The notes below the pieces were generated by a model. It saw nothing but the letters and a program-made list of their open reading frames with translations. It did no database searches and was not told the origin of the DNA. From Parcubacteria group bacterium GW2011_GWC1_36_108 (GTDB lineage Bacteria > Patescibacteriota > Minisyncoccia > Moranbacterales > GWC2-37-73): a DNA stretch of 64,000 bases. The stretch spans positions 10,944-74,943 of the forward strand of contig LBRD01000005.1 of NCBI GenBank assembly GCA_000991245.1. The letters are read 5' to 3'. Positions 1-61,847 of this stretch are shown one piece after another (the first letter of the stretch is position 1; every line of letters starts with the position of its first letter). The position numbers and the translations under genes were made by a program.

Positions 1-1124
1 TGAACAATCTTTCCTGCTACTAAACCAACAACGCCAATTGAAAAATGTTCGCTAATGGCAAAAATAAATTTCTTATCCTTAAAGGCGTTTTCGGCTAAAA
101 CTTTAACTTCATCCACTATTTTTTCAGTAATTTTTTGTCTTTCAGAATTATTCGCTTCAAGTTCGAGCGCAAAAATACGAGCTTTTGCAACGTCTTTTTC
201 TATTATCAAATTATAAGCCAAACTGGCATGATTAATTCTGCCAGCCGCATTAATACGAGGAGCTATATAAAAAGAAACTTTTTTAGTATCCGGAATTTCA
301 TTTTCGTTTATTACTATTCTGCCAACCGTAAACAATTCCAAAAGTCCAATACGCCGCGTTTTAGAAAGAACCGTTAATCCGTATTTTACAAAAAGTCTGT
401 TTTCTCCAACAAGAGGAACGCAATCGGCAATAGTTCCAATAGCCACCAAATCAAGCATCCACTTTGAAAGATGTATTTTTTCAGGCAAAAGTTTTTGAAA
501 AACGGCTTGCACAACTTTAAAAGCCACCCCCACACCAGCCAGCTCCTTAAAGGGATAACCACAGCCATCTTGATGTGGATTTATAATAGCAAATGCATCA
601 GGCACACTTGCTGGAACATGATGATGGTCTGTAATGATAACATCCATACCAAAAGAATTTGCCTTTTCAACTTCAGCAATACTAGTGATTCCGCAATCCA
701 CAGTAATAATTAAATTTACATTTTTTTCTTTAAAAATATCAATGGCAGCACTGTTGATTCCATATCCCTCACTATGTTTATTCGGAATATATACAAAAGA
801 TTCAATCCCAAGAAGATCCAATGTTTCCTTAATAATAGCTGATGATGTTATTCCATCTGCATCATAATCACCAAAAATAGCAACTTGCTGTTTTTCATCG
901 CGAGCTCTCTTGATTCTATCAACAACTTTTTCCATATCACCAAAAGCAAACGGATCAAATGAATCCGTTTCATAATTTGGATCAATAAATTGAGATATTT
1001 CTTTTTCAGATTTCAGCCCCCGTGAAAGTAATAATTTTATGACTGATGAGTTTAGTGAGAGTGATGATCCGCCAGCTGGCAGAGATGAAATTTCCTGCGG
1101 TTCTTTAAGCGTCCATTTAGCCAT
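1..1124 (-). CDS. recJ: single-stranded-DNA-specific exonuclease RecJ (N-terminal part; C-terminus lies beyond the window start)
   Basis: Reverse translation from the ATG at 1122-1124 gives MAKWTLKEPQEISSLPAGG... with the DHH motif (LIITVDCGITS...GMDVIITDHHH) about 160 aa in. No in-frame stop occurs before position 1. Confidence 0.85.
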   Translation of the reverse strand, partial: MAKWTLKEPQEISSLPAGGSSLSLNSSVIKLLLSRGLKSEKEISQFIDPNYETDSFDPFAFGDMEKVVDRIKRARDEKQQVAIFGDYDADGITSSAIIKETLDLLGIESFVYIPNKHSEGYGINSAAIDIFKEKNVNLIITVDCGITSIAEVEKANSFGMDVIITDHHHVPASVPDAFAIINPHQDGCGYPFKELAGVGVAFKVVQAVFQKLLPEKIHLSKWMLDLVAIGTIADCVPLVGENRLFVKYGLTVLSKTRRIGLLELFTVGRIVINENEIPDTKKVSFYIAPRINAAGRINHASLAYNLIIEKDVAKARIFALELEANNSERQKITEKIVDEVKVLAENAFKDKKFIFAISEHFSIGVVGLVAGKIV

Positions 1125-1145: not shown

Positions 1146-1276
1146 AGAAGTTACGCTTTTCGAAACATTTCTTTTTTGGCCAATAGCCGCCGAGAGGGGC
1201 TTCTTGAGCTTTTGGATAGTGAGTATTTATCCAAAAGCGTGCCAAATAAGAAATAGTTGAGAAAATGCGTAAGTCC
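1146..1276 (+). repeat. R-element copy R1 (~130-bp MITE-like element with ~35-bp imperfect terminal inverted repeats and a central 10-bp-stem hairpin CTTTTGGATA/TATCCAAAAG)
   Basis: Nearly identical to the reverse complement of 61711-61840 and related to 1881-1995. Termini GAAGTTACGC...GCGTAAGTCC are inverted. It lies 22 nt upstream of the recJ ATG and 10 nt past the response-regulator stop. Confidence 0.6.
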
Positions 1277-1285
1277 TACATTTAA

Positions 1286-1864
1286 TCATTTAACCACGCT
1301 GCCACATCCAGGACAAACAAATTTCGCTTCAAATACTCGATCCTTTGGATTAATTAATTTGAGCTTAAGTACGAGTTTTGCACTACAATCCAAACAAAGA
1401 TAATTTGCTTGAAAATTAAGGTCTTTGGCTATTTTTTGAGCATCTTGAGCATAAACATCAAAATCCAGTTGATATTCCTTTCCAGCTTGAGTAAACAATG
1501 AGCTTATACGCTCCACTACTTCAATAGGGCGAGTTGTTCCTCTAACAATAAAATCTTTCACTCCCAATTTAGTTGCCCTAATTCTATCTTCTTCCCTACC
1601 CATGTGCGAAGAAATGACGACTGGAATAGTTGAAGTCATAACTGTTTTTTGCAATGATTCAACCATCGAAAATCCATCCATTCTTGGCATAACTATTCCA
1701 GTAAATATTACATCAGGAATTTCTTTTGTCGCTTTGTCTAAACCCTCTACCCCATCGTTTGCCACAATAACTTCAAAATTGGCATTTTGAAATATCTCAA
1801 CATACATTTCTCTTAGTTCAACATCATCATCAACAATAAGAACTTTTAATTTTTTATTTTCCAT
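1286..1864 (-). CDS. response regulator receiver (CheY-like) protein with a C-terminal Cys-rich zinc-ribbon-like tail
   Basis: 192 aa; LIVDDD...FTGIVMPRMDG receiver motifs; C-terminal CLDC...CPGC. Confidence 0.8.
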   Translation of the reverse strand: MENKKLKVLIVDDDVELREMYVEIFQNANFEVIVANDGVEGLDKATKEIPDVIFTGIVMPRMDGFSMVESLQKTVMTSTIPVVISSHMGREEDRIRATKLGVKDFIVRGTTRPIEVVERISSLFTQAGKEYQLDFDVYAQDAQKIAKDLNFQANYLCLDCSAKLVLKLKLINPKDRVFEAKFVCPGCGSVVK

Positions 1865-1880
1865 ATATTTTTAAAATCTT

Positions 1881-1995
1881 GTAATTGCGAGAATATTTTC
1901 TTTTTGGCCAATTGTTGGCGACAGCGACTCTTGAGCTTTTGGATATTGAGCATTCATCCAAAAGCGTGCCAAAAGGGAAATATTCTCGCAATTAC
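1881..1995 (+). repeat. R-element copy R2 (diverged; perfect 18-bp TIR GTAATTGCGAGAATATTT...AAATATTCTCGCAATTAC)
   Basis: Shares the central core ttggcgacagcgactcttgagcttttggata..atccaaaagcgtgccaaa with R1/R3. It is in the same orientation as R1, so R1 and R2 bracket the response-regulator gene. Confidence 0.55.
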
Positions 1996-2004
1996 AAAGC
2001 TGGT

Positions 2005-4062
2005 TTAAATAATTATTTTTATATCGACTGCCAAGGCTTCTCGTCCATCATTATAGATAAAAAGAGGATTAATATCAAATTCCAAAATATCCTTATTCTC
2101 AATTGCAAACTGCATCAGACCACTAATGATACTTGAAAATTCTTCTATGTTATAGGCTTGCTGACCACGTGCACCAGAAAATAAGAAACTTATCTTACTT
2201 TTTAAGATTTGATCCCTAATACTTTGAGCAGACATTGGAGGAATTAGAAAATTAACCATTTTGAAAACTTCCGTATAAATTCCACCCAAGCCATACACAA
2301 TTACTGGTCCAAAAATACTATCTTGTTTGATTCCTAAAATAAGTTCTATTTGTTTATCCTGCATTGGCTGCACAACCAAACGCTCATTTGGAAAATTAGC
2401 TCTTAGTTTTTTAGCAGCAGTTTCTAATGCTGAAGGATCTTTGACATTTAAAATAAGTGCTTGCTTATCTGATTTATGCAACACTTTATCACTATCAATC
2501 TTAATCACGACTGGGTATTGCATAATAGGTGAAATTTCAGATTCAGGTAAAATTTCAACCCAATCTACCGGATTTACAGCATATTTTTTCATAACTACAG
2601 CTGCTTCAGAAAAGTACAACGCACTTCTGTTTTGTTTTTTGGCAACAACAATAATATCTTCGACTTGTTTTTTGCGCGACACAATAATCTCATCCTTACA
2701 AATCATCTCCTTGGTTTTTTTAAAAACGCTCCACTTATAATATTTATCCCAAGCTAAAATTGCACCGTCCGGATTCGAAAAGTTTGGGATTGAGTTTGTT
2801 TTCAATTCATCAACAGCTTTTTTGATACGTCCTCCTCCGATAAATACAGTCATTATTGCAGCTGAATTTTCTTTCCTTTTTTTTATTATAACATTTGTGA
2901 TCTTTTCCACTGGCGTCTGCTGTTGCGGGGTAAGAACTGATATTATTGCACCAATTTTTTGCTTGCTTAAAATATCAATAACACTCTGATATCTATCATC
3001 CTGAGCATCTCCCAATAAATCAATAGGGTTTTCCACGGAGGCTTCCAGTGGCAAAACGCTTTGCATTAGATTTTTTGTTTTTTTGTCGAGATCAGCGAGT
3101 ACAATATTCTTTTTATCAAAAGCATCGGTTGTTAGTACGCCTGCTCCTCCAGCATTCGTAAGCACAGCGACTTTTTCATTTTTTGGAGCATCAACAAATG
3201 AAACAAGTGTGAGCAAGTTAAAAAAATCTTCCAGATCATTAGCTCTAATAACACCTGCTTTTTCAAAAGCAATATCAATAATTTCATCGCTTCCTGCCAA
3301 TGCGCCAGTATGTGACGATATGGCTATTTGTGCTTTTTCTGTTTTGCCAGCCTTCAAAATTACTATTGGCTTTATCTTGGAAACTTTCTTAGCTACTTCA
3401 ATAAACTTTCTTCCGTCTTTTATTCCTTCCAGATACATTCCGATAACTTTTGTTTCCTTATCTTTTGCGAGATATTCAAGCAATGCGGATTCATCAAGTT
3501 GCATCTTATTCCCAACTGAAATAATTTGCGAAAATCCAATATGTTCATTAGCAGCTCTATCCATCAGAGCCACTGCCAATGCGCCTGATTGTGAAATAAA
3601 AGCAATGTTTCCGGCTTTTGGCATTCCGCCAGCAAAAGAAGCATTGAGTTTAAGTTTTGGGACAATAAATCCCAAGCAATTTGGTCCTAAAATGTTTAGG
3701 TTATGTTTTTGTGCAAGTTCAGCCAAATCTTTCTCTCTTTTTATTCCTTCTGCATCAGTTTCGGAAAATCCCGCTGAAATAATAACAAAATTCTTAACTT
3801 TCTCACAACTACCAGCAATCACATCAAGCACAAACTTTGCCGGCACAGCCACCAACGCCACGTCAACAGATTTTTTTATACTATTAAGATCAGGATAACA
3901 ACGTTTTAATCTCAAAAGCTTATAAGAAGGATTCACGAAATATATTTCTCCCTTATAACCAAGTTTTACGATATTATCAACCAAAACGGTGCCTATTTTC
4001 CCTTTTTTGTTTGAAGCACCAATAATAGCGATCGATTTTGGTGCGAAAAGTTTTTCTAGCAT
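2005..4062 (-). CDS. acetyl-CoA synthetase (ADP-forming), fused alpha/beta (NDP-forming acyl-CoA synthetase family)
   Basis: 685 aa; N-terminal CoA-binding domain (SIAIIGAS...GKIG), succinyl-CoA-synthetase-like flavodoxin domain and C-terminal ATP-grasp domain. Confidence 0.8.
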   Translation of the reverse strand: MLEKLFAPKSIAIIGASNKKGKIGTVLVDNIVKLGYKGEIYFVNPSYKLLRLKRCYPDLNSIKKSVDVALVAVPAKFVLDVIAGSCEKVKNFVIISAGFSETDAEGIKREKDLAELAQKHNLNILGPNCLGFIVPKLKLNASFAGGMPKAGNIAFISQSGALAVALMDRAANEHIGFSQIISVGNKMQLDESALLEYLAKDKETKVIGMYLEGIKDGRKFIEVAKKVSKIKPIVILKAGKTEKAQIAISSHTGALAGSDEIIDIAFEKAGVIRANDLEDFFNLLTLVSFVDAPKNEKVAVLTNAGGAGVLTTDAFDKKNIVLADLDKKTKNLMQSVLPLEASVENPIDLLGDAQDDRYQSVIDILSKQKIGAIISVLTPQQQTPVEKITNVIIKKRKENSAAIMTVFIGGGRIKKAVDELKTNSIPNFSNPDGAILAWDKYYKWSVFKKTKEMICKDEIIVSRKKQVEDIIVVAKKQNRSALYFSEAAVVMKKYAVNPVDWVEILPESEISPIMQYPVVIKIDSDKVLHKSDKQALILNVKDPSALETAAKKLRANFPNERLVVQPMQDKQIELILGIKQDSIFGPVIVYGLGGIYTEVFKMVNFLIPPMSAQSIRDQILKSKISFLFSGARGQQAYNIEEFSSIISGLMQFAIENKDILEFDINPLFIYNDGREALAVDIKIII

Positions 4063-4121
4063 ATTTTTATTTTTTATTTATAATATATGTTTATTATATC
4101 AGAAAAATAAACAATTTAAAA

Positions 4122-4148
4122 ACCCGCTCTGCATTGCAGAAACGGGCT
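4122..4148 (-). terminator. hairpin plus T-run terminator downstream of the 4303-4959 gene
   Basis: On the minus strand: cccgtttctgcaatgcagagcggg followed by ttttt. Confidence 0.4.
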
Positions 4149-4302
4149 AATAAGTTTCAAGTAGTGGACTCGCCGCTATTACCACTATCCCAAGGACTTC
4201 TCCTGTTACACTTTTTCGTTGAGGGATGGTGCGGATCCCTCTGCTACTGAATTATATTCAAAGCATCGTAGTCATTTTCCTTTCTTTTAAATTAGACAGT
4301 TT

Positions 4303-4959
4303 TTAGGCTGTCATTTTCTCAACATAGTCAATGACTGCATCCATAATAATTTTGCGAACTTGCTTGCCGCTTGAATATGCGACTGGCTGCACCTTGCCGT
4401 TAACAAGAATACACCCACTCCACGCATCAAGCATGATTTGAATAATTTCCTGAGCACCATCACTGATGGAAAATTTGATTCCTGGAAGTTCCTTGATTGA
4501 AAGATCTAGACCGACATCAAGCACAAACCCCCATGACCTGACCTCCAAACGAATTCCGTCCTCCAGGCATTGAGAAGTTATCTCCTCAACAACTTCCTGC
4601 TGCCTTTTCTGCCGACCAGTTATCATAGCGTTCAGTGAATTTTGATTTGCAATCCTTATTGACTCAAGACCATTCATCCATGACAATAATGCTATTGACT
4701 TATCATCACGCAGAGCAATGCCAAGTGGAAATCTTGCCTCAATCATCCTATTCTGATCGCATCCCCAATCTCCAGATTGCACAATTGCAGAAACAAGTGT
4801 GGGATTATCAAATTCCAATCTGATATCACCCATGTGAACACGTCCTAAAATCATCGCCAGATCATTAATTGCATTTTCAGAACACTTGAATGTCATTATG
4901 ACTGTTGGACCAATTCCAGGATACCGCTTACCCATTTCTCTTAAGATCTCTGCTCTCAT
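4303..4959 (-). CDS. hypothetical protein on a GC-richer island (~45% GC) with a strong SD
   Basis: Start chosen at MRAEILREMGKRYPG, which is preceded by GGGAGG 5 nt upstream. The longer ORF-track N-terminus has no RBS. No recognisable domain. Confidence 0.6.
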   Translation of the reverse strand: MRAEILREMGKRYPGIGPTVIMTFKCSENAINDLAMILGRVHMGDIRLEFDNPTLVSAIVQSGDWGCDQNRMIEARFPLGIALRDDKSIALLSWMNGLESIRIANQNSLNAMITGRQKRQQEVVEEITSQCLEDGIRLEVRSWGFVLDVGLDLSIKELPGIKFSISDGAQEIIQIMLDAWSGCILVNGKVQPVAYSSGKQVRKIIMDAVIDYVEKMTA

Positions 4960-5046
4960 GTGAACCTCCCTTAAAAATATAATGTACAACTTGGTGCATA
5001 AGCAGCCAATCGTTAATGATAGCACAAAATCATGCTTAAGTCAAGT

Positions 5047-5086
5047 CAAAAAAATCACCATTCAATGAAGAGTGGTGATTTTTTGC
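5047..5086 (-). terminator. rho-independent terminator (bidirectional hairpin flanked by A and T runs)
   Basis: aaaaaaatcaccattcaatgaagagtggtgattttttg. Confidence 0.5.
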
Positions 5087-5106
5087 TTTATTACTAGCAT
5101 TTTCAC

Positions 5107-5823
5107 TTATCGTGTCCAGCGAAATGATTTGAAAAAATCATTAAAATCATCCGCAAAAAATTCATATTGGTATTCGCCGGTCCCGCAAACAAAAACATAA
5201 CTATTTCCTTGATGCGAAGTGATGGCCTGAGAAACTCTTGTTCTATTGCCAAGCGGGTCAGTGAAAGAAAATTCAATCATATAGGCGTCTTCTCCTCCAA
5301 TTTTGGTCCGCAATGAGGAAATTTCTTTGAAGTCTTTAATGTGCGTCGAGAGGTCACTGGCAACAGCATTGTGAATTTCTTGATCTGATTTTTGAAAATT
5401 GATCCCAACTGGATTAGACCTAACGTCACAACCGGTTCTTTGATCGCCTTTTAAGCGAAAGCCTCCCAAATATGAATCGCCATATTTTTTTTCTTCATCA
5501 TTGTCTGCAACAAAAGCATTTGGAAATTTAAAGCTAAAATCGGGACCAATGTGAGAATAAGATTCATAATTAATCTTTGAAATTCCCGCATTTATTCTAA
5601 TACCTGTAACATTAGTGTTTGACCAAGATTTTATTCCGCTAATAACACCAAGGATAATAGCTATTATCACTAAGATAAAAAATATTTTTTTAATATCCTT
5701 TTTCCATCCAGCCCAATCCACAAGAAAATGTTTTAAAGTTTTTTTTGAATCAGCTTTATTAACAGCCTCCTTTTCTTCAACTTCTATGATGATTTCATTT
5801 TCGCTATTTTTATCTTCTTCCAT
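5107..5823 (-). CDS. hypothetical membrane-anchored protein (single N-terminal TM segment, extracytoplasmic domain)
   Basis: 238 aa; hydrophobic segment IFFILVIIAIILGVISGI; lies 31 nt downstream of the giant surface-protein gene. Confidence 0.6.
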   Translation of the reverse strand: MEEDKNSENEIIIEVEEKEAVNKADSKKTLKHFLVDWAGWKKDIKKIFFILVIIAIILGVISGIKSWSNTNVTGIRINAGISKINYESYSHIGPDFSFKFPNAFVADNDEEKKYGDSYLGGFRLKGDQRTGCDVRSNPVGINFQKSDQEIHNAVASDLSTHIKDFKEISSLRTKIGGEDAYMIEFSFTDPLGNRTRVSQAITSHQGNSYVFVCGTGEYQYEFFADDFNDFFKSFRWTR

Positions 5824-5853: not shown

Positions 5854-8800
5854 TTAGCAAGTTGTTCCAGTTACGATTCCACCTTCGATTGTGATAGTAC
5901 AAGTATCAGTAGTCAGTGGACCTTTTACTACAGTAAGCGTACTGCTAACTCCACTGTTTCCATCAACCTTAAATACTCCAGTAGCTGAAACATCTTTAAC
6001 ATCTGAAAGATCATTTCCATTAGCATCAATGTCTGCTGCCATATTCAATGTGTCAGCAAGGTTAAGTCCTCCGCTTCCAGTAAAGTCAGTTCCACTGTTT
6101 CCAAGGTTAGTCAAAACATTATCATGCATATCAATGTCACCTCTCATATCAGAATCCCCTGTTATATCAAAACCTCCCGCAGTAACAGTGAACAGACCAC
6201 CAGAAGTTATTGCTCCACCGAATAATCCGCTAGTAGCAATATTCAAACTTCCGCTACCAACAAGATTCCCGCTAAGAGTAAGCGCTGAAAGATTTGTATC
6301 TCCGTTTGATTGAATTTGCCAATCACCGTCTGTAATTGAAACATTAGCATTAGAATTACCAATATGAACTTGCGCAGCGTCTGCCCCTGCTGTTCCAAGA
6401 TTTATTGTTGAATCTGGTCCAGCAGTGTTGTCAGAATTTGTAAGACCAGTAAGGAAATTTACACTGTCAGCATAAATTGTTGACCAACGTGAACCGCTTG
6501 TTCCAAGTGATCCACCAGTAATGTCACCCTCGACGTGCAAATTAGCCTTGCCAGTTCCTGTATTTCTAATAAAAACATCAGAATCAACAGCATTGTTTGC
6601 AATATCAATATTCATGCTGTTGCTTGTTGAAAAGATGTTTCCACCTGAAAGACCTGCTGTTCCATCGCTAAGTAAGAAAGCTAACACGCTGCCTGTTGTA
6701 TTTACATTTATAGCGCTGTTTAAGTCGCTACCCACTATTGTTCCGTCTATAATTTTTGCAGAATCAACACTATCACCAGAAAGTTTTGCGTTTGTTACTG
6801 CACCATCAACAATAGAATTTGTTGTTATTGAATTATCAACCACAGCAGCTGCAAGAGTTGCTGTGCTAGCATTTCCTGTGATGTTAGCAGCTATATCAGA
6901 TGAAAAAGTTTTAATTCCATCTATTGTTTGATCTCCAATTGTGTAGACACCATTAGTAACAGTTTCAGCATTTCCTGTGATATTAGCAACTATGTCAGAT
7001 GAAAAAGTTTTAATTCCATCGATTGTCTGATCTCCGATTGTGTAAACACCATTGGTAACAGTTGCTGCATTTCCTGTAATATTAGCAACAACATCCTGCG
7101 TGAATGTATTGATGCCAGTCAAAGTGTTATTAGCAGCAGCATAAACTCCATCAGTAACGGTTGCAGCATTTCCTGTAATGTTAGCAACTATATCAGATGA
7201 AAAAGTCTTAATTCCATCTATTGTTTGATCTCCGATTGTGTAAACACCATTGGTAACAGTTGCTGCATTTCCAGTAATATTAGCAACGACATCCTGTGTG
7301 AATGTGTTGATACCAGTCAAGGTATTATTAGCAGCAGTATAAACTCCATCAGTAACGGTTGCGGCATTTCCTGTTATATTAGCAATAACATTTGAAGTAA
7401 ATGTTTTAATTCCATCGATTGTCTGATCTCCGATTGTGTAAACACCATTAGTAACTGTTCCAGCATTTCCACTCACGTTGCCAGTTACATCACCAACAAG
7501 ATCTCCAGTAAATTGAACTGCAGTTATAGTTGTAGTTGAATCGATATTACTTCCGGTTATTGTGTCATTTGCGATTTTTACACCAGTTACCGCTCCGTCA
7601 GCAATCTTTGCAGTAGTTACACTTTGATCTGCAAGCTTCACAGGAGTAATAGCACTATCTGCGATTTTTCCAGAAGTAACAGCAGCATCAAGAATTTTTG
7701 AAGTGATAACAGAATCATCTGCTAATTTTGAAGTTGTTACTGCACCATCAAGAATTTTTGCAGTAATCACGCTACCATCAGCTAATTTAATATCAGTAAT
7801 TGCACCGTCCTGGACTTTTGCTGTTGAGATTGAACCGTCAGCTAAATTAACAGCCACGATTGTTCCATCGGCAATTTTTCCAGAAGTAACAGCACCGTCA
7901 ATTATTTTTGCAGTCGAAACAGAATTGTCAGCTAATTTTATCGTAGTAATTATTCCATCTGCAAGATCAGCTACTTGAACCGTTCCGTCAACAATCTTTG
8001 CGCTAGTCACACTATCGTCTGCTAGCTTTACTGTAGTGATTGCACCATCAGCAATTTTTTCTGTTGTTATTGTTGCATCCAGGATTTTAACTGCTGTTAC
8101 TGAATCATCTGCTAATATTGCAGTTGTCACAGCCAGGTCTTGAATTTTTGAAGTACTAACTGATCCATCTGCCAATTTGATATTTGTAATAGCGCTGTCT
8201 TCAATTTTTGCTGTTGAAATTGAACCGTCAGCTAAATTAACAGCCACGATTGTTCCATCGGCAATTTTTCCAGAAGTAATTGTTCCATCTAAAATTTTTG
8301 AATTAACCACGCTACCGTCAGCCAATTTGCTTGTAAGAATAGCACCATCAGCGATTTGATTGCTTCCAACTCCACCATCAGCAATCCCAACAGTTCCGAC
8401 ACCAATAGTTATTCCTGTTCCAGCGCCGACAGTTAAGGTTACATTTCCAAGTGTTCCACCACCAATCAATCCGTCTCCAGCAGTAACACCAGTTATTGTT
8501 CCACCACCAGCAATTGAGTTAACAGTCCAAGAACCATCGTTATTATTAACAACTGTAACATTGTCTCCAGCAACAATTGATTTAACCATACTTCCGTCTG
8601 AAGCAAGTTTATTTCCTGTTATTGTTCCATCAGCAATCTGCAGCCCAGTTATTGAACCGATAATTTTTGAAGCGTCTAAGCTTGTTATCCATGCAGGGTC
8701 ATTATATGAGCCAGTTGTGTAAACACCATCAGTAACGGTGTCAGCATTTCCTGTAAGTGTTCCAACAACGCTGCCAATAAGATTACCCACGAATGAACCA

Positions 8801-9654
8801 GCAGTAACTGTTCCAGTTGTTGTGACATCTCCGCTGCTTATAACGGTCACGCCATCAGTAAAAGAAGCTGCTGTAACAGCGCCTGTAGTGTTGATAGTAA
8901 TATCTGAAGCTAATTTTGAACCCGTGATTTCATTGTCGCCAATTTTAGCGGCAGTTACCACGCCGTCTGCCAATTTTGCAGTTACAATAGCTCCGTCAGC
9001 AATTTTTATTGTTGTCACAGCGCCATCAGCCAATTTTCCATTCGTTACTGCGCCATCAACGATCTTTGCGGTCACAATTGCATCATCTGCAATTTTAACT
9101 CCCGTAACAACTCCGTCAGCAATCTTTGCTGTTGTCACGCTGCCATCAGCCAATTTAACATCAGTTATTGCACCATCAACAATTTTTGCTGTAGTCACGC
9201 TATCATCAGCCAATTTTAAAGTCACAATTGCACCATCAGCAATTTTACCAGCAGTGATTGAGCCATTTGCCAAAGAAACGCCAGCAATTGCACCATTAGC
9301 CAATTTGGCAGAAGTGATTGCACCATTTTTGATGTCTCTTGCTTTAATCGAATCTCGCAAATTTAATTTTGAATATCGTATGCCAGCATTATTTGCAATA
9401 TCCTTATTTTTTAATCGACGTGAAATGTCTACTACATATTGAACACCATTTTTTTCAGCAACCTTTATCACGCTCAATATTTTTTCAGTTCTTGTTTTAG
9501 CATTAACACCATAAAAACCTGCTCCTAAAATAAAAACAACCATAACCAAAACAGTTACGATTTTAACTTTCTTTGCATTTTTCTTCAAAACGTCAGAAAC
9601 AACCCTTCCCTTTTCTAACACTTCCTGCCCAAAAGCTTTTTTACTCATACTCAT
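5854..9654 (-). CDS. giant repetitive cell-surface protein (N-terminal membrane anchor; dozens of ~9-10-aa [KL]ADG[AS]VT[TS]AKI beta-helix-like repeats plus 33/66-aa repeats)
   Basis: 1266 aa ORF; TM segment VTVLVMVVFILGAGFYGV; extreme Thr/Gly/Ala/Val/Ile repeat composition; DNA tandem repeats of 99 and 198 bp. Confidence 0.75.
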   Translation of the reverse strand: MSMSKKAFGQEVLEKGRVVSDVLKKNAKKVKIVTVLVMVVFILGAGFYGVNAKTRTEKILSVIKVAEKNGVQYVVDISRRLKNKDIANNAGIRYSKLNLRDSIKARDIKNGAITSAKLANGAIAGVSLANGSITAGKIADGAIVTLKLADDSVTTAKIVDGAITDVKLADGSVTTAKIADGVVTGVKIADDAIVTAKIVDGAVTNGKLADGAVTTIKIADGAIVTAKLADGVVTAAKIGDNEITGSKLASDITINTTGAVTAASFTDGVTVISSGDVTTTGTVTAGSFVGNLIGSVVGTLTGNADTVTDGVYTTGSYNDPAWITSLDASKIIGSITGLQIADGTITGNKLASDGSMVKSIVAGDNVTVVNNNDGSWTVNSIAGGGTITGVTAGDGLIGGGTLGNVTLTVGAGTGITIGVGTVGIADGGVGSNQIADGAILTSKLADGSVVNSKILDGTITSGKIADGTIVAVNLADGSISTAKIEDSAITNIKLADGSVSTSKIQDLAVTTAILADDSVTAVKILDATITTEKIADGAITTVKLADDSVTSAKIVDGTVQVADLADGIITTIKLADNSVSTAKIIDGAVTSGKIADGTIVAVNLADGSISTAKVQDGAITDIKLADGSVITAKILDGAVTTSKLADDSVITSKILDAAVTSGKIADSAITPVKLADQSVTTAKIADGAVTGVKIANDTITGSNIDSTTTITAVQFTGDLVGDVTGNVSGNAGTVTNGVYTIGDQTIDGIKTFTSNVIANITGNAATVTDGVYTAANNTLTGINTFTQDVVANITGNAATVTNGVYTIGDQTIDGIKTFSSDIVANITGNAATVTDGVYAAANNTLTGINTFTQDVVANITGNAATVTNGVYTIGDQTIDGIKTFSSDIVANITGNAETVTNGVYTIGDQTIDGIKTFSSDIAANITGNASTATLAAAVVDNSITTNSIVDGAVTNAKLSGDSVDSAKIIDGTIVGSDLNSAINVNTTGSVLAFLLSDGTAGLSGGNIFSTSNSMNIDIANNAVDSDVFIRNTGTGKANLHVEGDITGGSLGTSGSRWSTIYADSVNFLTGLTNSDNTAGPDSTINLGTAGADAAQVHIGNSNANVSITDGDWQIQSNGDTNLSALTLSGNLVGSGSLNIATSGLFGGAITSGGLFTVTAGGFDITGDSDMRGDIDMHDNVLTNLGNSGTDFTGSGGLNLADTLNMAADIDANGNDLSDVKDVSATGVFKVDGNSGVSSTLTVVKGPLTTDTCTITIEGGIVTGTTC
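6880..7480 (-). repeat. in-frame 99/198-bp coding tandem repeats inside the surface-protein gene
   Basis: gtgtaaacaccattggtaacagttgctgcatttcc recurs at 7040, 7238 and 7436 (198-bp period); protein unit NGVYTIGDQTIDGIKTF...ITGNAATVT. Confidence 0.6.
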
Positions 9655-12738: not shown

Positions 12739-12883
12739 ACCCAATTAAATAAGATTTGGGTCTAACTTTTTGGCAGAACCAACTTATTCTTGTTTAAAAT
12801 TTAATATTAATTAATATATCCATTCAATACACTCAAATCTTAGTTTTAAATTTTTAATAAAATTTAAAACTATTTAACAGGGT
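12739..12883 (-). repeat. E-element, long form (E1): ~145-bp palindromic MITE-like leader element with nested stems, ending 3 nt before the lipoprotein ATG
   Basis: Terminal arms cccaattaaata...tatttaacaggg; inner complementary pair aagatttggg/ctcaaatctt; homologous to 43839-43986. Confidence 0.6.
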
Positions 12884-13928: not shown

Positions 13929-14396
13929 CTATTTAGTTTTTTGTTTTATCCAATTCACATATCCCCCATTTGCCTCAACTTCAATTTTCATGATGCAGGA
14001 CTGACTCATTTCCACATTTCTTTTTCCCGCAAAAAGAAACCTGGAGGAAAGAAAAGCTCGCACCTGATGAAGATACTGTGGCAAAAACTTCGCTCTTCGC
14101 TAAAATTTACACTGCGCGCCTACGTCTGCTGACGGGCGCTACGTTTCAAAATTTCTTAACGCTCATCACTCGTTTTTTGCCTACGTACTTCATATGGTGC
14201 AAAGGGAATGCAAAATGCAAGATGCAATAAGTTTTTCCTCAAGCAAATGTTCAGCAACTTTTTTCGCTTCTTTGAGGTTTTTGTGAGTGATGTAGAAGAT
14301 GATGGATTTTATATTTCTTTTAAAATCTATTTCTATACTCGCTTCTTTTTTGATAAATTCTCTCATTAAACCCACCCTGTTTGACAAATTCTTCAC
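13929..14396 (-). pseudogene. cutA: cutA (divalent-cation tolerance protein) remnant, frameshifted and truncated
   Basis: N-terminal CutA-like SIIFYITHKNLKEAKKVAEHLLEEKLIASCI runs into a stop. The CutA-like C-terminus (VLHHEN / IEVEANGGYVNWIKQKTK*) is in other frames further downstream. The 5' end overlaps the neighbouring four-helix-bundle gene. Confidence 0.4.
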
Positions 14397-14877
14397 TTAG
14401 AGTTGCGAGTTGTTTGTCGAGAAGATAATTTGTTTGATAAATGACGCAGATGGCAACATTAGCAGCTGACTCAGGATCGTTCAAATAGGACGAATAAGAC
14501 TGAAAGGACGGATTATTATAGCACAAGTTTCGCACAATTTTTGCCTGCGGAAAATCTTTCGCCCAAAGTTTCAAATTTCTTTGTCGAAGAAAATCCTCGT
14601 AGTCCAAAAGTAATTCTTCCAAACTTGCACGTGCGACGTTTGTCAATTTGAGCTCCGTCTTTTTTGAAGTTCCTGCTGCCCGACTTCCTTCAGCAATATT
14701 TTGTCTGCCACTGCGTGCCGCTTGATCCATCTGATCGCGAGTCCTGCTTTTATAATCAATGTATCTTTTTGTAAATTCAACAGTAATATCGTAGACAATC
14801 GTCGACATCTGAAAGGATTTCAGATCGCGATAGCCACCATGCGTGAACATTAAATTTTCATCAGTCCTATTTGTCAT
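14320..14877 (-). CDS. four-helix-bundle protein (23S rRNA intervening-sequence protein family, long variant)
   Basis: 185 aa; core motif SGRQNIAEGSRAAGTSKKTELKLTNVARASLEEL. Confidence 0.7.
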   Translation of the reverse strand: MTNRTDENLMFTHGGYRDLKSFQMSTIVYDITVEFTKRYIDYKSRTRDQMDQAARSGRQNIAEGSRAAGTSKKTELKLTNVARASLEELLLDYEDFLRQRNLKLWAKDFPQAKIVRNLCYNNPSFQSYSSYLNDPESAANVAICVIYQTNYLLDKQLATLSEEFVKQGGFNERIYQKRSEYRNRF

Positions 14878-16903: not shown

Positions 16904-17146
16904 ATTTTTATAACCCCACAAATCTACAAATCTTTTACGAATATACAAATTAAATTCGTTTTTAAAATATTTGCAAAATTATAGGTTAAATTAATTATTG
17001 CTTATTATTTTTTGTTATATGTTACATGTTATATGTTTTATGTTATACTTATATTAGAGCTTGATACATCGCTATCTGCTTCGCCCTACGGGATATTTAA
17101 CTTATGCCCGTATGGGCTTTTTTATTTATAAAGTTTTCTTCAACCA

Positions 17147-21445: not shown

Positions 21446-22354
21446 ATGAAAACTGTTGAATTTAAAAATATCACTTGGATTGACTTTGTTGATCCGGGAG
21501 CAGACGATGTTGTGTATCTGCAGGAAAATTTCGATATCCACCCGCTGGCGATTGAAGAGTTTGTCACTCCGACATATCGTCCGAAAGCTACGCAATATGA
21601 AAATTGCATTTTTCTTACAATTCACATTCCCCTTTTTAATGTTGAAACACGAACAACTTATCCAGGAGAATTAGACATTGTTCTTACTAAAGATCATTTG
21701 ATAACTGGGCAGACAAAAGAAATTTATCAACTAGATGATTTTTTCACAAAATTAGCCAACAACGAAGGGCAACGTCGTTTGTATATGAACAAAACTCCCG
21801 CTCATCTTTTGTATAGTATTCTTGAAATGCTTTTGGAATCATGCTTTCCACGCATTGATCATATCCACAGAAAATTGGAACATATTGAAGAGCAGGTTTT
21901 CAATGGGAAAGAAAAGGAAATGGTTTTCGAAATATCCGTCGTAAAACGTGATATTCTTAATTTTCGCCGAACACTCAAACCTCAACGTCATATCATTGAA
22001 TCACTGGCGCAAATGAAATCCCCTTTGATTGCTGCGGAGCTTTCAGCATATTTTCAAGATCTTACAGGTACAAACATCCGTCTTTGGAATGCGCTGGAAT
22101 CAAACAAGGAAACGATTGAGTCTATGGAGGAAACTAATAATTCTCTGCTTTCCAACAAATTGGATTTCACCATGAAAGTGCTTACCGTTTTTTCAGCAGT
22201 TATGATGCCAATGACAGTATATTCAAATATTCTTGCTATGAGCGCTGATATCCCTTTTGGCAAAAGTCCGCATGCATTTGCTATTCATGTCTCTATAATG
22301 CTTTTCATCTCACTTTGCACTATAATCGTATTCAAAAGCAGAAAATGGCTATAG
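21446..22354 (+). CDS. CorA-family divalent cation transporter (canonical GMN motif not evident)
   Basis: 302 aa; N-terminal HPLAIEEF and RPK motifs; two C-terminal TM helices. Confidence 0.6.
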   Translation: MKTVEFKNITWIDFVDPGADDVVYLQENFDIHPLAIEEFVTPTYRPKATQYENCIFLTIHIPLFNVETRTTYPGELDIVLTKDHLITGQTKEIYQLDDFFTKLANNEGQRRLYMNKTPAHLLYSILEMLLESCFPRIDHIHRKLEHIEEQVFNGKEKEMVFEISVVKRDILNFRRTLKPQRHIIESLAQMKSPLIAAELSAYFQDLTGTNIRLWNALESNKETIESMEETNNSLLSNKLDFTMKVLTVFSAVMMPMTVYSNILAMSADIPFGKSPHAFAIHVSIMLFISLCTIIVFKSRKWL

Positions 22355-22358
22355 GGGG

Positions 22359-22814
22359 CAGCTTATTAGGCTTTAGCTTATTAGCTTTTTAGAAAATGCG
22401 AAAATGCATTCGTTAGCTTATTAAGAAATACAACAGCATGATAAATTCATATAAAGATCTCATTGTTTGGCAGAGATCAATGGAGCTTGTTGTTGAAATT
22501 TATAAAGTTACTGAAGAATTTCCAATAGCGGAGTTGTATGGTATCATATCCCAAATGCGCAGAGCTGCGGTCTCGATTCCTAGCAATATAGCAGAAGGAA
22601 GAAAAAGAAGTACGAGAAAAGATTTCAGACAATTTTTAATTATAGCGTACGCCAGCGCTTCTGAATTGGAAACGCAAATTGAAATATCAAAACGCTTAAA
22701 TTTCATTGAAGTTGACAAATATACAAAAACTGATGCACTATTACTTGAGACAATAAAAATGCTAAACAAAATGATTTCCTCCCTAAAAAGCTAACGCCTA
22801 ATAAGCTAAAAAAT
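22359..22814 (+). repeat. F-element copy F1: imperfect 19-bp inverted repeat (cagcttattaggctttagc / gctaacgcctaataagcta) enclosing a four-helix-bundle ORF and abutting the cysS ATG
   Basis: Same arms as the ORF-less hairpins at 24758-24850 and 41521-41600. Confidence 0.55.
22438..22794 (+). CDS. four-helix-bundle protein (23S rRNA intervening-sequence protein family, short variant)
   Basis: 118 aa; IPSNIAEGRKRSTRKDFRQFLIIAYASASELETQIEIS. Confidence 0.8.
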   Translation: MINSYKDLIVWQRSMELVVEIYKVTEEFPIAELYGIISQMRRAAVSIPSNIAEGRKRSTRKDFRQFLIIAYASASELETQIEISKRLNFIEVDKYTKTDALLLETIKMLNKMISSLKS

Positions 22815-24757: not shown

Positions 24758-24850
24758 ACAGCTTATCAGCTTCTTAGGCATTAGCTTTTTAGAAACCTGA
24801 TAAGATATCTTTTTTCTAAAAAGCTAAGAAGCTAAAAGCCTAACGCCTAC
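24758..24850 (+). repeat. F-element copy F2: long imperfect hairpin in the dnaB leader with no ORF in its loop
   Basis: cagcttatcagcttcttaggcattagctttttagaaa - cctgataagatatcttt - tttctaaaaagctaagaagctaaaagcctaacgcctacc, then ATG 6 nt later. Confidence 0.55.
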
Positions 24851-24855
24851 CCCTT

Positions 24856-26250
24856 ATGGCTAAAGAATGGAAAGACTACAAACCAAAGCAGGCTCCGGCG
24901 CAAAATTATGATCCGCTGCGCACGCCACCACATAACAATGAGGCTGAAATGTCTATTTTGGGTTCTTTGATGTTGGAAAAAGATGCAGTTATCAAAATTG
25001 CTGATCTTTTAAAAGTTGGTGATTTTTATAAAGACATTCACAATCAGATTTATGAAGCAATGCTGGAACTTTATGAGCAGAGAGAACCTTTGGATGTTTT
25101 GAGTATTTCCAACAAGCTGGATGAAAAAAAACAATTGGAACAAATTGGCGGTTCAAGTTATTTGGCTTCCTTAGTTGGAACAGTTCCATCAGCATCCCAC
25201 ATTGTACATTATGCTAAAGTTGTTCAGAAAAAAGCATTGTTGCGCAGACTTATCAATGCTGCCAGTGAAATTATTGAAGCTGGATTCCGCGAAGGTGATG
25301 ACGTAGAAAAAATTCTCGATGAAGCTGAACAAAAACTTTTTGCTGTTTCTCAAAAATATATAAAGCAGGATTTCTTGCCAATCAAATCAATTTTGGAAGC
25401 TGCCTTTAATCGTATTGATGAGCTTCATCGCGATGGCAACAAGTTCCGCGGAATTCCAACCGGCTTTGCTGATCTTGATAATGTTCTGGCTGGCCTGCAA
25501 AAATCTGATCTTTTGATTCTTGCTGCCCGACCTTCAGTTGGAAAAACATCACTAGCACTCGACATCGCACGTCACGTGGCGGTCAGAGAAAATGCAGCAG
25601 TAGCGATGTTCTCTTTGGAAATGTCAGCCGATCAACTTGTGGATCGTATGCTTGCCGCTGAAGCCAATGTTGATTTGTGGCGACTTCGAACTGGGAGACT
25701 CAACAGTGAAGGCGAGAACAATGACTTTCAACGAATTGGCGAAGCAATGGGTATTCTTTCTGAAGCAAAATTATTCATCGATGATACTGCCAGCGCCAAC
25801 ATTATGGAAATGCGCACAATGGCACGTCGTCTTCAAGCTGATAACAACCTCGGACTTATTATTATCGATTACTTGCAATTGATGGAAGGACGCGGCGGAG
25901 ACAATCGCGTGCAGGAAATTTCTGAAATTTCTCGCGGACTAAAAAATTTGGCTCGTGAACTTAACATTCCAATCATCGCACTTTCGCAGTTATCCCGCGC
26001 CGTTGAAGCTCGCTCTCCACAAATTCCAAAACTTTCTGATCTTCGAGAGTCTGGTTCGATTGAGCAGGATGCTGATGTGGTTCTTTTCCTATACCGCGAA
26101 GATCGCGAAAAACCAGACACCCCAAACAAAGGTATTGTTAAAATCATCATCGCCAAGCATCGTAATGGTCCAGTCGGCGAAGTCAGCGCATTCTTCCAAG
26201 AAAACAGCGCGAGTTTTAGGTCACTCGAGAAAATACACCAACAAAATTAA
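24856..26250 (+). CDS. dnaB: replicative DNA helicase DnaB
   Basis: N-terminal DnaB domain; Walker A (ARPSVGKTSLALDIARHVA); RecA-like C-terminal domain. Confidence 0.93.
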   Translation: MAKEWKDYKPKQAPAQNYDPLRTPPHNNEAEMSILGSLMLEKDAVIKIADLLKVGDFYKDIHNQIYEAMLELYEQREPLDVLSISNKLDEKKQLEQIGGSSYLASLVGTVPSASHIVHYAKVVQKKALLRRLINAASEIIEAGFREGDDVEKILDEAEQKLFAVSQKYIKQDFLPIKSILEAAFNRIDELHRDGNKFRGIPTGFADLDNVLAGLQKSDLLILAARPSVGKTSLALDIARHVAVRENAAVAMFSLEMSADQLVDRMLAAEANVDLWRLRTGRLNSEGENNDFQRIGEAMGILSEAKLFIDDTASANIMEMRTMARRLQADNNLGLIIIDYLQLMEGRGGDNRVQEISEISRGLKNLARELNIPIIALSQLSRAVEARSPQIPKLSDLRESGSIEQDADVVLFLYREDREKPDTPNKGIVKIIIAKHRNGPVGEVSAFFQENSASFRSLEKIHQQN

Positions 26251-28362: not shown

Positions 28363-28425
28363 CATATTCAAAGTGTATTTTGTTGTAGATTGAAAGTTGT
28401 TTGTTGTTTGTTGTATGTTACATGA

Positions 28426-31276: not shown

Positions 31277-32398
31277 CTATAATATGATTCCTCCGCCCAA
31301 CACCTCATTGTCATCCGCATAAAACACAGCACTTTGCCCTGGCGTTATCGCCTTTTGTCTTTCCAAAAACTCCACTTCCAAAACGGTATTTTTTTGAGCC
31401 CCTGTTGTATGTTGCTTGTTGTATGTTGCTTGTTGTTTTATTATACCACGCACCAAAGGATGCCGGTATCTTATTTTTACATTTACCTCTAATGGCAATT
31501 TCGGCTCATCCGCAATCCAGTTTTTAAGTTCAACTGTCATTATTTTTTTAAACACTTTTTCATCTTCTTCATTATTAGTAACGATGAGTTGATTATTCTT
31601 AAAATCACGCTGGACCACAAAATATGGTCCATTGCCGCCAATATTAATTCCCTTGCGTTGACCAATAGTATAAGTTTCTAGTCCATCATGTGTGCCAATT
31701 TTTTTACCTTCGGTATTAATAATATCTCCTGGCGACAAAGCAAGATTACGTTTGATGAATTTGGTTGGAGTTTTTTCCGGTGTAAAACAAAGACCTTGCG
31801 AATCTTCCTTATCAAAAACTGGCAACTTTATTTTTTCGGCAATTTTTCTTATAGCAGGTTTTTTATATGTTCCCACGGGAAATAAAATTTTTGCGAGCTG
31901 TGCCTGCTTTAAGGAATAAAGAAAATACGTCTGATCTTTTTCTTCATCACTTGAAGTGTAGAGATGAAACTTTCCATCAATATTTTTCACTTCAGCATAA
32001 TGTCCAGTTGCCACAAAATCAGCGTCCATCTCCAACATCTTTTTAAACAAAAAATTAAATTTGATTCTTTCATTGCAAACCACGCAAGGATTTGGAGTGC
32101 GTCCAGCTTTTATTTCTGAAAGAAAATAATCCACGACTTCTTTTTTAAATTCTTGAGCAGCGTTGGAAGTATAAAGAGGGATGTCCAAAATTTGAGCCAC
32201 TTTTCGAGCATCTTGTTGAGATTCAACACTGCAACATTTGTTCTCTCTAAGTTCATCCTGTCCTGGTTCTTTCCAAAAATGCAAAAAAACACCCACGACA
32301 TCATAGCCTTGTTCTTTTAGAAGTGCGGCTGCCACCGAAGAGTCCACCCCGGCGCTCATCCCCACAATTACCCTCTTCTTGATTATATTCTTACTCAT
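31277..32398 (-). CDS. mnmA: tRNA 2-thiouridine(34) synthase MnmA
   Basis: PP-loop VIVGMSAGVDSSVAA; 14-bp in-frame tandem duplication at 31390-31420. Confidence 0.9.
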   Translation of the reverse strand: MSKNIIKKRVIVGMSAGVDSSVAAALLKEQGYDVVGVFLHFWKEPGQDELRENKCCSVESQQDARKVAQILDIPLYTSNAAQEFKKEVVDYFLSEIKAGRTPNPCVVCNERIKFNFLFKKMLEMDADFVATGHYAEVKNIDGKFHLYTSSDEEKDQTYFLYSLKQAQLAKILFPVGTYKKPAIRKIAEKIKLPVFDKEDSQGLCFTPEKTPTKFIKRNLALSPGDIINTEGKKIGTHDGLETYTIGQRKGINIGGNGPYFVVQRDFKNNQLIVTNNEEDEKVFKKIMTVELKNWIADEPKLPLEVNVKIRYRHPLVRGIIKQQATYNKQHTTGAQKNTVLEVEFLERQKAITPGQSAVFYADDNEVLGGGIIL

Positions 32399-41513: not shown

Positions 41514-41520
41514 AAAAATA

Positions 41521-41600
41521 GCTTCTCAGCCTTTAGCTTCTTAGCTTCTTAGAAAATTCAGGACACCTGAAAAGCTAAAAAGCTAACGCCTAAAAAGCTG
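41521..41600 (-). repeat. F-element copy F3 in the pheT leader
   Basis: mRNA-sense: cagctttttaggcgttagctttttagctttt-caggtgtcctga-attttctaagaagctaagaagctaaaggctgagaagctattttt-ATG. Confidence 0.5.
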
Positions 41601-43836: not shown

Positions 43837-43838
43837 TT

Positions 43839-43986
43839 ACCCTGTTAAATAAGATTTGGGCTTTTTAAAAAAGAAAACCCACCTATTAAAGTTAATTTTT
43901 TAATTTTATTCACAACATTATTTAATTCAAGAACCCAAATCTTAATTTTAAATTTTTTAAGGAAATTTAAAATTATTTAACAGGGT
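43839..43986 (-). repeat. E-element, long form (E2), ending 3 nt before the tyrS ATG
   Basis: Perfect 12-bp TIR ccctgttaaata...tatttaacaggg; inner stem aagatttggg/cccaaatctt; ~125-bp AT-rich interior. Confidence 0.6.
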
Positions 43987-44017
43987 GAATAATCTTAAAT
44001 TTTCATTACTAATATAG

Positions 44018-52124: not shown

Positions 52125-52643
52125 CTAAAATGATTGCAGCACGATTGATCCATCGGGGGCGACGTCGGTGCAGGTTCCGCGTAGGAATGCTTTTTTTCCA
52201 ATAGTAAGCATTGTTTTGATTTTATCAGCAATTTGACTGTCTGATTTCACAATCACACGCACGGGATATGCGGCGTCATTGTCCAAATTACCTTTGGCAT
52301 ATGTGCCCCCGGTTGGAATGCCCTCTATGATTTGCACACTCCAAAACAAATTTGTGTTGGGTGTCATTGTTTTGTTTTTGCATTGTTCCCATTGCGATCT
52401 AATAAGTTTTTTTCTTTCTTCAGAAGTTTCTTGCACAGCTGGAGCTTTCTTTGGCTCAACAGTTTTGCTTTGACTTGGATTTGCAACTGTAGGGTTTAAA
52501 GATTTTACCTCAGCGCTTGCTTGAATCGTTTTGGGAGCAACAGCAACAGGGGCAGGTTTTTTCTTAGCAAAAAGAAGAAATGCTCCAGAAACAACTCCCA
52601 AAAAAATAACAAAACCTAGGACGATTTTTATTTTTGTATCCAT
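52125..52643 (-). CDS. hypothetical secreted/membrane-anchored protein
   Basis: 172 aa; N-terminal TM or signal segment; Pro/Ala/Val-rich linker. Confidence 0.55.
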   Translation of the reverse strand: MDTKIKIVLGFVIFLGVVSGAFLLFAKKKPAPVAVAPKTIQASAEVKSLNPTVANPSQSKTVEPKKAPAVQETSEERKKLIRSQWEQCKNKTMTPNTNLFWSVQIIEGIPTGGTYAKGNLDNDAAYPVRVIVKSDSQIADKIKTMLTIGKKAFLRGTCTDVAPDGSIVLQSF

Positions 52644-52651
52644 TTTTCTTG

Positions 52652-52690
52652 CCCCGTTAAATTGCGGTAATCCGCACTATTTAACTGGGG
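52652..52690 (-). repeat. E-element, short form (E3), hairpin ending 8 nt before the ATG
   Basis: gccccgttaaattgCggtaatccGcactatttaactgggg. Confidence 0.6.
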
Positions 52691-52720
52691 TTGCTTTTTA
52701 AAAAATTACTATTTTTTAAT

Positions 52721-61501: not shown

Positions 61502-61710
61502 ATATTTTTAACCTTGTTACATTCCAAAAATTGGTAATGTTTAACCAGGTTGTATACAATTTTAAAATCTACGCTTCTAAACAGGCGTCGACCACATCCT
61601 GAATAGTTTGTTATTAATATACAATTAAAAATGCTTTTGCTTTCAAAACAAAAGACAGGTTTTAACCTGCCTTTATGTCTTATGCTTTTTCTATCCAAAC
61701 TATAAATTTA

Positions 61711-61840
61711 GGACTTACGCATTTTCTCAACTATTTCTTATTTGGCACGCTTTTGGATAAATACTCACTATCCAAAAGCTCAAGAGTCGCTGTCGCCAAC
61801 TACTGGCCAAAAAAGAAATGATTCGAAATGCGTAACTTCT
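61711..61840 (-). repeat. R-element copy R3 (reverse orientation; >90% identical to R1)
   Basis: Reverse complement reads agaagttacgcatttcgaatcatttcttttttggccagtagttggcgacagcgactcttgagcttttggatagtgagtatttatccaaaagcgtgccaaataagaaatagttgagaaaatgcgtaagtcc. Confidence 0.6.
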
Positions 61841-61847
61841 GATATTA

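Follow-up and report, generated by a model that had tools for sequence, protein, structure and literature searches.

Probable insertion-competent hairpin repeats of Moranbacteria on either side of a resident response-regulator gene

The window analyzed here is the whole of a 64,000-nucleotide stretch from Parcubacteria group bacterium GW2011_GWC1_36_108, of the order Moranbacterales (contig LBRD01000005.1, positions 10,944 to 74,943 of the forward strand). It has a G+C content of 36.9%, contains no tRNA genes, and gives no match to Rfam at gathering thresholds. Near its left end, every gene lies on the minus strand, and the products are a RecJ-like exonuclease, a response regulator (RR), and an acetyl-CoA synthetase-like protein (ACS). 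The spacers between these genes are occupied by copies of a hairpin-forming repeat, here called R, with R1 in the RR-RecJ spacer and R2 in the ACS-RR spacer. A third copy, R3, is 60 kb distant on the opposite strand, between the stop codon of a gene at 61848-62546 and an intrinsic terminator at 61674-61651. The features of the two regions are as follows.

3..1124, minus strand: RecJ-like exonuclease gene (5' part), at the operon position downstream of R1; DHH, DHHA1, and RecJ_OB domains on the full gene in L001
1129..1141, plus strand: left copy of a 13-bp direct repeat, AATCATTTAACCA, abutting R1 just upstream of the RecJ start codon
1142..1283, plus strand: R1, a complete GTTACGC-subfamily element in antisense orientation to the flanking operon; model match 1161-1260, 98.1 bits; fold -53.7 kcal/mol, z -6.7
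1284..1296, plus strand: right copy of the 13-bp direct repeat AATCATTTAACCA, overlapping the last codons and the TGA stop of RR
1286..1864, minus strand: RR gene, 192 amino acids, a REC domain and a C-terminal Cys-rich tail; Pfam Response_reg, E 1.5e-19
1879..1997, plus strand: R2, full element of a different outer-stem subfamily, antisense to the operon; model match 1889-1987, 104.5 bits; fold -59.8 kcal/mol, z -9.9
2005..4062, minus strand: ADP-forming ACS-like gene, at the operon position upstream of R2; CoA_binding_2, Succ_CoA_lig, and ATP-grasp_5 domains
61651..61674, minus strand: hairpin like that of an intrinsic terminator, with a T run after it; 30 nt downstream of R3
61704..61843, minus strand: R3, a complete GTTACGC-subfamily element in sense orientation to the upstream gene; model match 61727-61825, 100.4 bits

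A sequence-only reading of the window had described the three copies as repeats resembling MITEs (miniature transposable elements with inverted repeats). All three exist where it placed them and are homologous. The identity of more than 90% that it gave for R1 and R3 holds, at 91.7% over 144 nt (blastn E 6e-55), and R2 is 88% identical to R3 over 93 nt and 81.5% identical to R1 over 92 nt. R1 boundaries were taken from the subfamily alignment. In the subfamily of R1 and R3, the conserved element reaches 4 to 8 nt further on each side than had been thought (TTTCAGAAG...GTCCTAAATTT), which places R1 at 1142-1283 and R3 at 61704-61843. R2 does have a terminal inverted repeat of its own, with 30-nt arms that are 93% complementary and include a perfect 20-bp run. 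A covariance model of the family, described below, finds no further copy in the window at E<=1. A fourth copy in the same organism, L001:20328-20483, lies about 10 kb past the left window edge.

The predicted folding of R1, R2, and R3 far exceeds that of shuffled sequence on both strands, with z scores from -5.9 to -9.9. The fold is built around a three-way junction closed by P1, a long outer stem with interruptions, and the two branches are a small hairpin, P2, and a hairpin of 10 to 12 bp, P3. P1 corresponds to what had been called terminal inverted repeats, and its inner part is TTTTTGGC/GCCAAAAA. The outer stem first written as ttggcc/ggccaa had been misread, as the inner stem is actually TTTGGC/GCCAAA and the right side is GTGCCAAA. 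P2 comes directly after P1 and consists of CAA/TTG and a 5- to 6-bp hairpin with the loop CGA(C/G)AG. One A after P2 stands P3, GCTTTTGGAT(A)/(T)ATCCAAAAGC with the loop A(T/G)TGAG(T/C)ATT(T/C), a hairpin that had rightly been reported in all three copies, and a GT linker returns to P1. The parts of R1 are listed for the plus strand.

1146-1180: P1 5' arm
1181-1206: P2 (CAA/TTG plus GCCGCC-GAGA-GGGGC)
1208-1238: P3
1241-1277: P1 3' arm

The arms are the least conserved sequence of the element, and conservation is highest in the junction and loops, which are almost invariant. The core is asymmetric, with P2 and P3 unlike in sequence and length, and the model scores it at 78 to 111 bits on one strand versus 15 to 25 bits on the other. 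The segment in which R1 had been seen to differ extensively from R2 and R3 does differ; however, it is not part of the outer stem but the separate small hairpin P2, and its changes are largely compensatory. R1 and R3 differ mainly there (GCCGCC-GAGA-GGGGC in R1 versus GTTGGC-GACA-GCGAC in R3), such that 1202-1284 is 99% identical between them and 1136-1201 is 82% identical. The P2 of R1 and the adjacent CTTCTTGAG resemble another subfamily, which has GCCGGC-GACA-GCGGC-TTCTTGAG. R1, with a 3' half close to that of R3 and a P2 like that of another subfamily, is therefore a mosaic, pointing to recombination between copies.

The structure of the central hairpin is conserved, and P1, P2, and P3 all covary. 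In a MAFFT alignment with the proposed structure, 90.4% of cells are paired versus 42 to 54% when the partners are slid, and double changes occur at 19 pairs, in 175 cells. Shuffles never matched the observed covariation values, except for pair-type diversity (3/500). In a model-fitted alignment of 89 distinct copies, 91.4% of cells are paired versus 37 to 55% with partners slid, and 30 of the 38 pairs are doubly changed, 6 of them in P3; owing to the bias of this alignment towards the model and to the relatedness of many copies, its figures are to be read as support and not as a probability. The covariation pattern of P2 differs from a codon pattern. On the R1-plus strand, G-U pairs outnumber A-C pairs by 89 to 43, and this ratio of about 2:1 is equal for copies sense and antisense to their genes. 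The asymmetry thus belongs to the element, not to the mRNA.

The three copies of the window are not the only ones. A scan for the P3 hairpin that covered 185,579 species genomes gave 87 loci, about 70 of which have a flanking core in common. The covariance model was built from 45 distinct cores and finds 92 matches in the sampled DNA, from at least 11 assemblies that are nearly all labelled Moranbacteria, Parcubacteria, or Patescibacteria. Assemblies hold from 2 to at least 15 copies in the DNA sampled. Copies with the exact hairpin are counted here per assembly.

Moraniibacteriota UBA12142: 14
GW2011_GWD2_38_11: 11
ELA218: 11
GW2011_GWC2_37_8: 10
SRP011637_co1_104 (labelled Bdellovibrionales): 8
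GW2011_GWE2_36_40: 4
SMAG_U2610: 3
STA_10: 2
W4_Combined_metabat1_134: 2

The model matches also include copies with an altered P3 and a divergent subfamily, in which the architecture, the P2 loop, and the ...AGC/GCGTGCC junction are kept and the P3 stem differs (for example, GCAGTCA/TGACTGC or GCTGTC/GACAGC). Altered-P3 variants were also recovered without conditioning on P3: a metagenome scan with P3 left free gave just one further contig, carrying three copies, in which P3 is GCUUUUGAAUA/UAUUCAAAAGC, a G-C to A-U double change. Subfamilies are genome-specific, and mosaic copies occur. In addition, four copies (L074:7449-7616, L086:7775-7862, L061:6301-6381, and L062:6980-7073) are chimeric, their 5' half (P1 arm and P2) being replaced or interrupted by a conserved element, CCCTCGGTTTGAATAATTCCGCCACGGGAAAACC...TTTTCCCGACCCC. 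Viral contigs and phage records gave no match to R. Rfam 15 gave none at the gathering threshold in the window or in four loci; relaxing the cut-off to E<=10 yielded matches to miRNA precursors alone, of a generic long-hairpin kind and far below threshold. Literature searches covering repeats of Moranbacteria, of Patescibacteria, and of the candidate phyla radiation (CPR) gave nothing relevant. R is apparently a previously undescribed family of hairpin-forming intergenic repeats of Moranbacteria, about 100 to 145 bp long.

The spread of these variants bears on the idea that R is a protein-binding site at the DNA level, either a DnaA-box cluster or a recombination site like the attC of integrons, which we regard as hardly credible. 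The DnaA box consensus is TTATCCACA, and the attC core consensus is RYYYAAC...GTTRRRY. The hairpin arm TTATCCAAA is one mismatch from the former, a resemblance that the sequence-only reading had called possibly coincidental; it is so, as the box lacks conservation: many copies have C in place of the first T of TTATCCAAA, and the whole P3 stem is replaced in the divergent subfamily. The attC sites are likewise imperfect palindromes of similar length that flank genes, but R occurs as single dispersed copies on many contigs in both directions and not in same-orientation cassette arrays, and the ends GTTACGC...GCGTAAG do not match the attC core.

The RR gene had been taken for the passenger of a composite mobile element, R1-RR-R2, and same-orientation copies do flank this 579-bp gene, with the gaps of 10 nt and 17 nt that had been measured. 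However, the gene stands at the same site in three relatives in which one or both repeats are missing. The order ACS-RR-RecJ is kept in UBA12142 (L018), GW2011_GWD2_38_11 (L054), and STA_10 (L076), and none of the three has an R copy at the RR-RecJ junction. In UBA12142, R2 is absent as well, the ACS stop being 9 nt from the RR start, and the RR-RecJ spacer of about 120 nt holds a different repeat. GW2011_GWD2_38_11 has an orthologue of R2 with shared junction sequences and none of R1. In STA_10, an R copy separates ACS from RR, and RR is followed by RecJ after a spacer of 21 nt. The junctions of the relatives indicate that R1 and R2 are separate insertions of different age and subfamily, R2 the older and R1 recent. 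Moreover, the identity between the two extends over the core only, and two copies within a few kilobases are about what the copy density predicts. A composite element is thereby rendered extremely improbable. The RR is an ordinary resident gene with an older insertion upstream and a recent one downstream.

The recent insertion has left a trace in the 13-bp direct repeat. AATCATTTAACCA brackets R1 exactly and has exactly two matches in the window, with 0.03 expected. With R1 and one repeat copy removed, the RR stop would be 7 nt from the RecJ ATG. The duplication is real for R1 but is not a rule of the family. The empty R1 allele had no match in Joint Genome Institute (JGI) metagenomes, a collection that probably does not include the organism.

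Several spacers hold R copies in two or more genomes, among them those of the rpsO-NYN-pnp operon in four genomes and the ACS-RR spacer in three. The rpsO-NYN-pnp operon was resolved by tblastn and a reading of the spacers. In UBA12142, an R copy has entered a conserved pnp-leader hairpin at its apical loop and so stands downstream of the promoter; the copy in L087 is upstream of the pnp promoter; and in GW2011_GWC2_37_8, it is just after the NYN terminator and in opposite orientation. In ELA218, the pnp-leader hairpin is empty, and each subfamily is represented by one copy between rpsO and NYN. The different positions within the same spacer indicate that the NYN-pnp copies are separate insertions and not inherited sites. 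Inversion in situ was considered in view of the opposite orientations of copies within one spacer; for the pnp spacer it was rejected, as the copies differ in position relative to the promoter and the leader hairpin. The leader hairpin itself, ACAGTTGAAAAAT...ATTTTTCAACTGT, is found downstream of a TTGACA-type promoter at L005:390-690, L072:3770-3900, and L065:1400-1520. It recalls the pnp leader hairpin of E. coli, which RNase III cleaves and uses as its entry site in PNPase autoregulation.

R copies have in turn received insertions. An element with the pattern GCCCCGT(T/C)AAATTG...GACGGGG sits inside the P3 loop of L001:20328-20483 and L003:5736-5891, and L035 has an intact orthologous copy. 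A 20-nt palindrome, CCTGCCTGCCGGTAGGCAGG, is nested in the R copy of L018, and a close variant is in that of L033; other nested palindromes are present in the copies of L017, L027/L041, and L015. A second palindromic repeat family, with ends GCCCCGTTAAAT...ATTTAAC(N)GGGG, has two members in the window (52641-52693 and 58028-58080, 53 nt, 94% identical). Its relatives are found nested in P3 loops (L001:20400-20345; L003:5736-5891), and another such element is in the NYN-pnp spacer of UBA12142 (L072 ~4090-4205).

All R copies lie outside real genes, in both orientations; the 12 that a crude gene finder placed inside open reading frames (ORFs) owe this to start extensions or to ORFs that are short and spurious. 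Of the copies between tandem genes, 25 are antisense and 14 sense, and a further 7 are between convergent and 6 between divergent genes. The GC skew is uniformly negative across the window, and R1/R2 and R3 therefore face opposite ways in one replichore. The 126 neighbouring proteins match 158 Pfam families, which represent diverse housekeeping genes, with no transposase or integrase among the families listed. No recurrent neighbour gene was found beside R copies. Neither a sigma-70-like promoter nor an intrinsic terminator was found inside R copies, and many have less than 20 nt left on both sides.

These data also speak to whether R might be a functional structured RNA family, cis-regulatory or protein binding, that is kept at particular genes and is not primarily mobile. 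We consider this distinctly unlikely. Relative to the only plausible transcripts, R is found in either direction, and its copies lack a promoter or terminator of their own, for which there is often no space. Copies in the 'same' spacer differ in position and orientation and so represent independent insertions, orthologous sites are often empty, the neighbouring genes have no common function, and the subfamilies are genome-specific and without an Rfam match. A structured RNA would, however, account for the near-invariance of the junction, the P2 loop CGA(C/G)AG, and the P3 loop A(U/G)UGAG(U/C)AUU(U/C) while the helices covary, for an architecture that the divergent subfamily holds despite its different P3 stem, for the recurrence in the rpsO-NYN-pnp (four genomes) and ACS-RR (three) operons, and for the 2:1 excess of G-U over A-C pairs on one strand.

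The spacers are too short for a promoter and the copies contain no promoter or terminator motif, from which it would follow that R is transcribed within the flanking mRNAs. There, R copies would form an interrupted RNA duplex of about 45 bp in either orientation. By analogy with Correia elements, the likeliest effect of R might be to act as a processing or stability site in the mRNA for a double-strand-specific RNase of the RNase III type, a suggestion that we put forward tentatively.

Overall, we consider it probable that R is a dispersed, insertion-competent repeat family for which the RR gene is not cargo. The term MITE-like fits this in part. R is 119 to 142 bp long and has no conserved ORF or start codon, and it is multicopy and polymorphic in its insertions, with 92 matches, orthologous sites that are either empty or filled, and nested insertions. 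Whether R is a strict MITE is doubtful, given its variable ends, the lack of a consistent target-site duplication of fixed length, and the absence of a transposase from the families listed for the neighbouring proteins. The P1 arms are complementary in every copy and change by compensatory substitution, and only the GTTACGC subfamily shares its ends.

Some observations weigh against an insertion-competent family. Contrary to the pattern of a classical MITE, conservation is lower in the terminal arms than in the core. Neither a transposase nor an autonomous partner was seen, and the case for mobility comes from presence/absence and nested insertions, not from a known mechanism. Among 22 subfamily copies there is no consistent flanking repeat, R1 alone having one (13 bp). 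The complementarity of the arms could stem from arm-to-arm gene conversion or from hairpin mismatch repair and not from selection, so that covariation is not proof of function. The G-U asymmetry does not track the mRNA; as many rows owe these pairs to common descent, this counts only weakly, if at all, against selection acting on the mRNA. As to the suggested processing, no RNase III gene was found in the sampled DNA, which is uninformative, since this is a small part of each genome and the query was an E. coli sequence.

We classify R with the lineage-restricted, structured, palindromic intergenic repeats, the same kind as REP/REPIN, ERIC, and Correia elements and new for this lineage. ERIC elements insert with a TA duplication, and the pneumococcal RUP has IS630-like ends, also with a TA duplication; the duplication of ERIC is not seen in R. 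R further differs from ERIC, which belongs to another phylum, in having no sequence similarity to it and in having a three-way junction, two internal hairpins, and strong covariation. Like R, ERIC is a multicopy element with a conserved core, an imperfect palindrome about 125 bp long, confined to transcribed intergenic regions in either orientation; it shows presence/absence at orthologous sites and has no known dedicated transposase (PMC10969869). It forms a long mRNA hairpin that can alter transcript stability, with an effect of RNase E (PMC10969869). The Correia elements of Neisseria (CREE/NEMIS) are likewise about 100 to 155 bp, with inverted-repeat arms, a conserved core, and presence/absence among strains, and they are cotranscribed with neighbouring genes into an RNA hairpin that is a substrate of RNase III (PMC2649163, PMC10969869). 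However, Correia ends are conserved, have TA duplications, and can form promoters, whereas R ends are variable and R has no promoter motif and no consistent duplication. The BOX, RUP, and SPRITE repeats of pneumococci are comparable as several unrelated families of small structured repeats that coexist in the intergenic regions of a single small genome, are transcribed, and are sometimes nested (PMC3049150); R differs from BOX and RUP in architecture, BOX being modular.

The REP/REPIN repeats share with R intergenic hairpins maintained in structure, genome-specific populations, the lack of target-site duplications, and long residence in a lineage (PMC3116915, PMC3337134). They raise the question of whether R is a REPIN-like element moved as single-stranded DNA by a single-copy HUH/Y1 enzyme, of the RAYT or IS200/IS605 type, that recognizes the internal hairpins. 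This concerns the mechanism of propagation and is compatible with R being an insertion-competent family. It would explain why hairpin structure is conserved over arm sequence, with some strand asymmetry, why target-site duplications are not consistent, why insertions occur in hairpin loops, and why subfamilies are genome-specific, as in REPIN populations (PMC3116915). A REPIN, however, is a pair of inverted short REPs of 20 to 25 nt around a spacer and depends on a REP-flanked RAYT gene, whereas R is a three-way junction of about 100 to 145 nt with an asymmetric core of two unlike hairpins. No RAYT or Y1 gene was seen adjoining any copy or in about 600 kb around the copies, whole genomes not having been scanned. 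Single-strand 'peel and paste' transposition does not make a duplication such as the 13 bp at R1, and copies face both directions within one replichore. We judge movement of this kind improbable, to much the same degree as a structured RNA kept at particular genes.

If R is propagated as an insertion-competent family, its conserved core would most likely be the recognition module of the propagating enzyme. That this module belongs to an undescribed CPR propagation system, targeting hairpin loops without regular duplication and dependent on single-stranded DNA or RNA, or else is an RNA module recruited by the host and with a biochemical role of its own, is a bolder proposal and an unlikely one; were such a system real, R would be a new class of mobile structured element and not a decayed insertion sequence derivative. 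A fixed core with drifting arms offers a handle for finding the enzyme, and the covariance model makes the family searchable. The genomes of CPR bacteria are very small and densely packed, and mobile DNA is generally considered scarce in them. Moranbacteria nonetheless keep a well-defined structured repeat at an apparent density of about one copy per 10 to 50 kb in the regions sampled, together with no fewer than three other families of small palindromic repeats, members of which insert into one another. R copies would give operons an internal stretch of double-stranded RNA of about 45 bp, and one of the copies sits in the pnp-leader hairpin. Repeats of this type account for contig breaks in these metagenome-assembled genomes and can serve as strain markers.

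Other small repeats are present in the spacers of the window. A third intergenic family, with AGCTTATTAGGC/TTAGCTTTTTAGAAA-like units, occurs at 22348-22396, 22783-22812, 24759-24860, and 41519-41604, its direct and inverted copies bracketing genes at 22.4-24.8 kb and recurring at 41.5 kb. A fourth repeat, ATTCAA...TTTAAATTTTT...ATTTAACAGGGT, is found at 12822-12883, 43835-43872, and 43925-43990, as a direct pair 31 kb apart and a local inverted pair. Short tandem units of the GTTATATGTTACATG type lie in spacers at 17000-17042, 28396-28424, and 31404-31432, and this motif also fills the RR-RecJ spacer of UBA12142 (L018 ~7185-7215), where the window has R1. A 33-nt inverted repeat, 14481-14513/14860-14892, with arms 85% complementary and 346 nt apart, is located at the end of the ORF 14320-14877.

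Two regions of the window differ from their counterparts in UBA12142. The variable region 4081-5115 holds a 240-amino-acid ORF without a Pfam match (4303-5025, minus strand), and the counterpart is only about 300 nt long, with an R copy that carries a nested 20-nt palindrome. At L069:2345-3147, UBA12142 has an extra block of about 800 bp, made up of an R copy and a small secreted-protein ORF; at the corresponding place in the window, 49256, the two genes overlap. Finally, 5854-9654 (minus strand) is a 1,266-amino-acid ORF without a Pfam domain that contains seven 99-nt (33-amino-acid) tandem repeats at 6770-7590 and further repeats with periods of 30 to 150 nt, and it probably encodes a surface protein.

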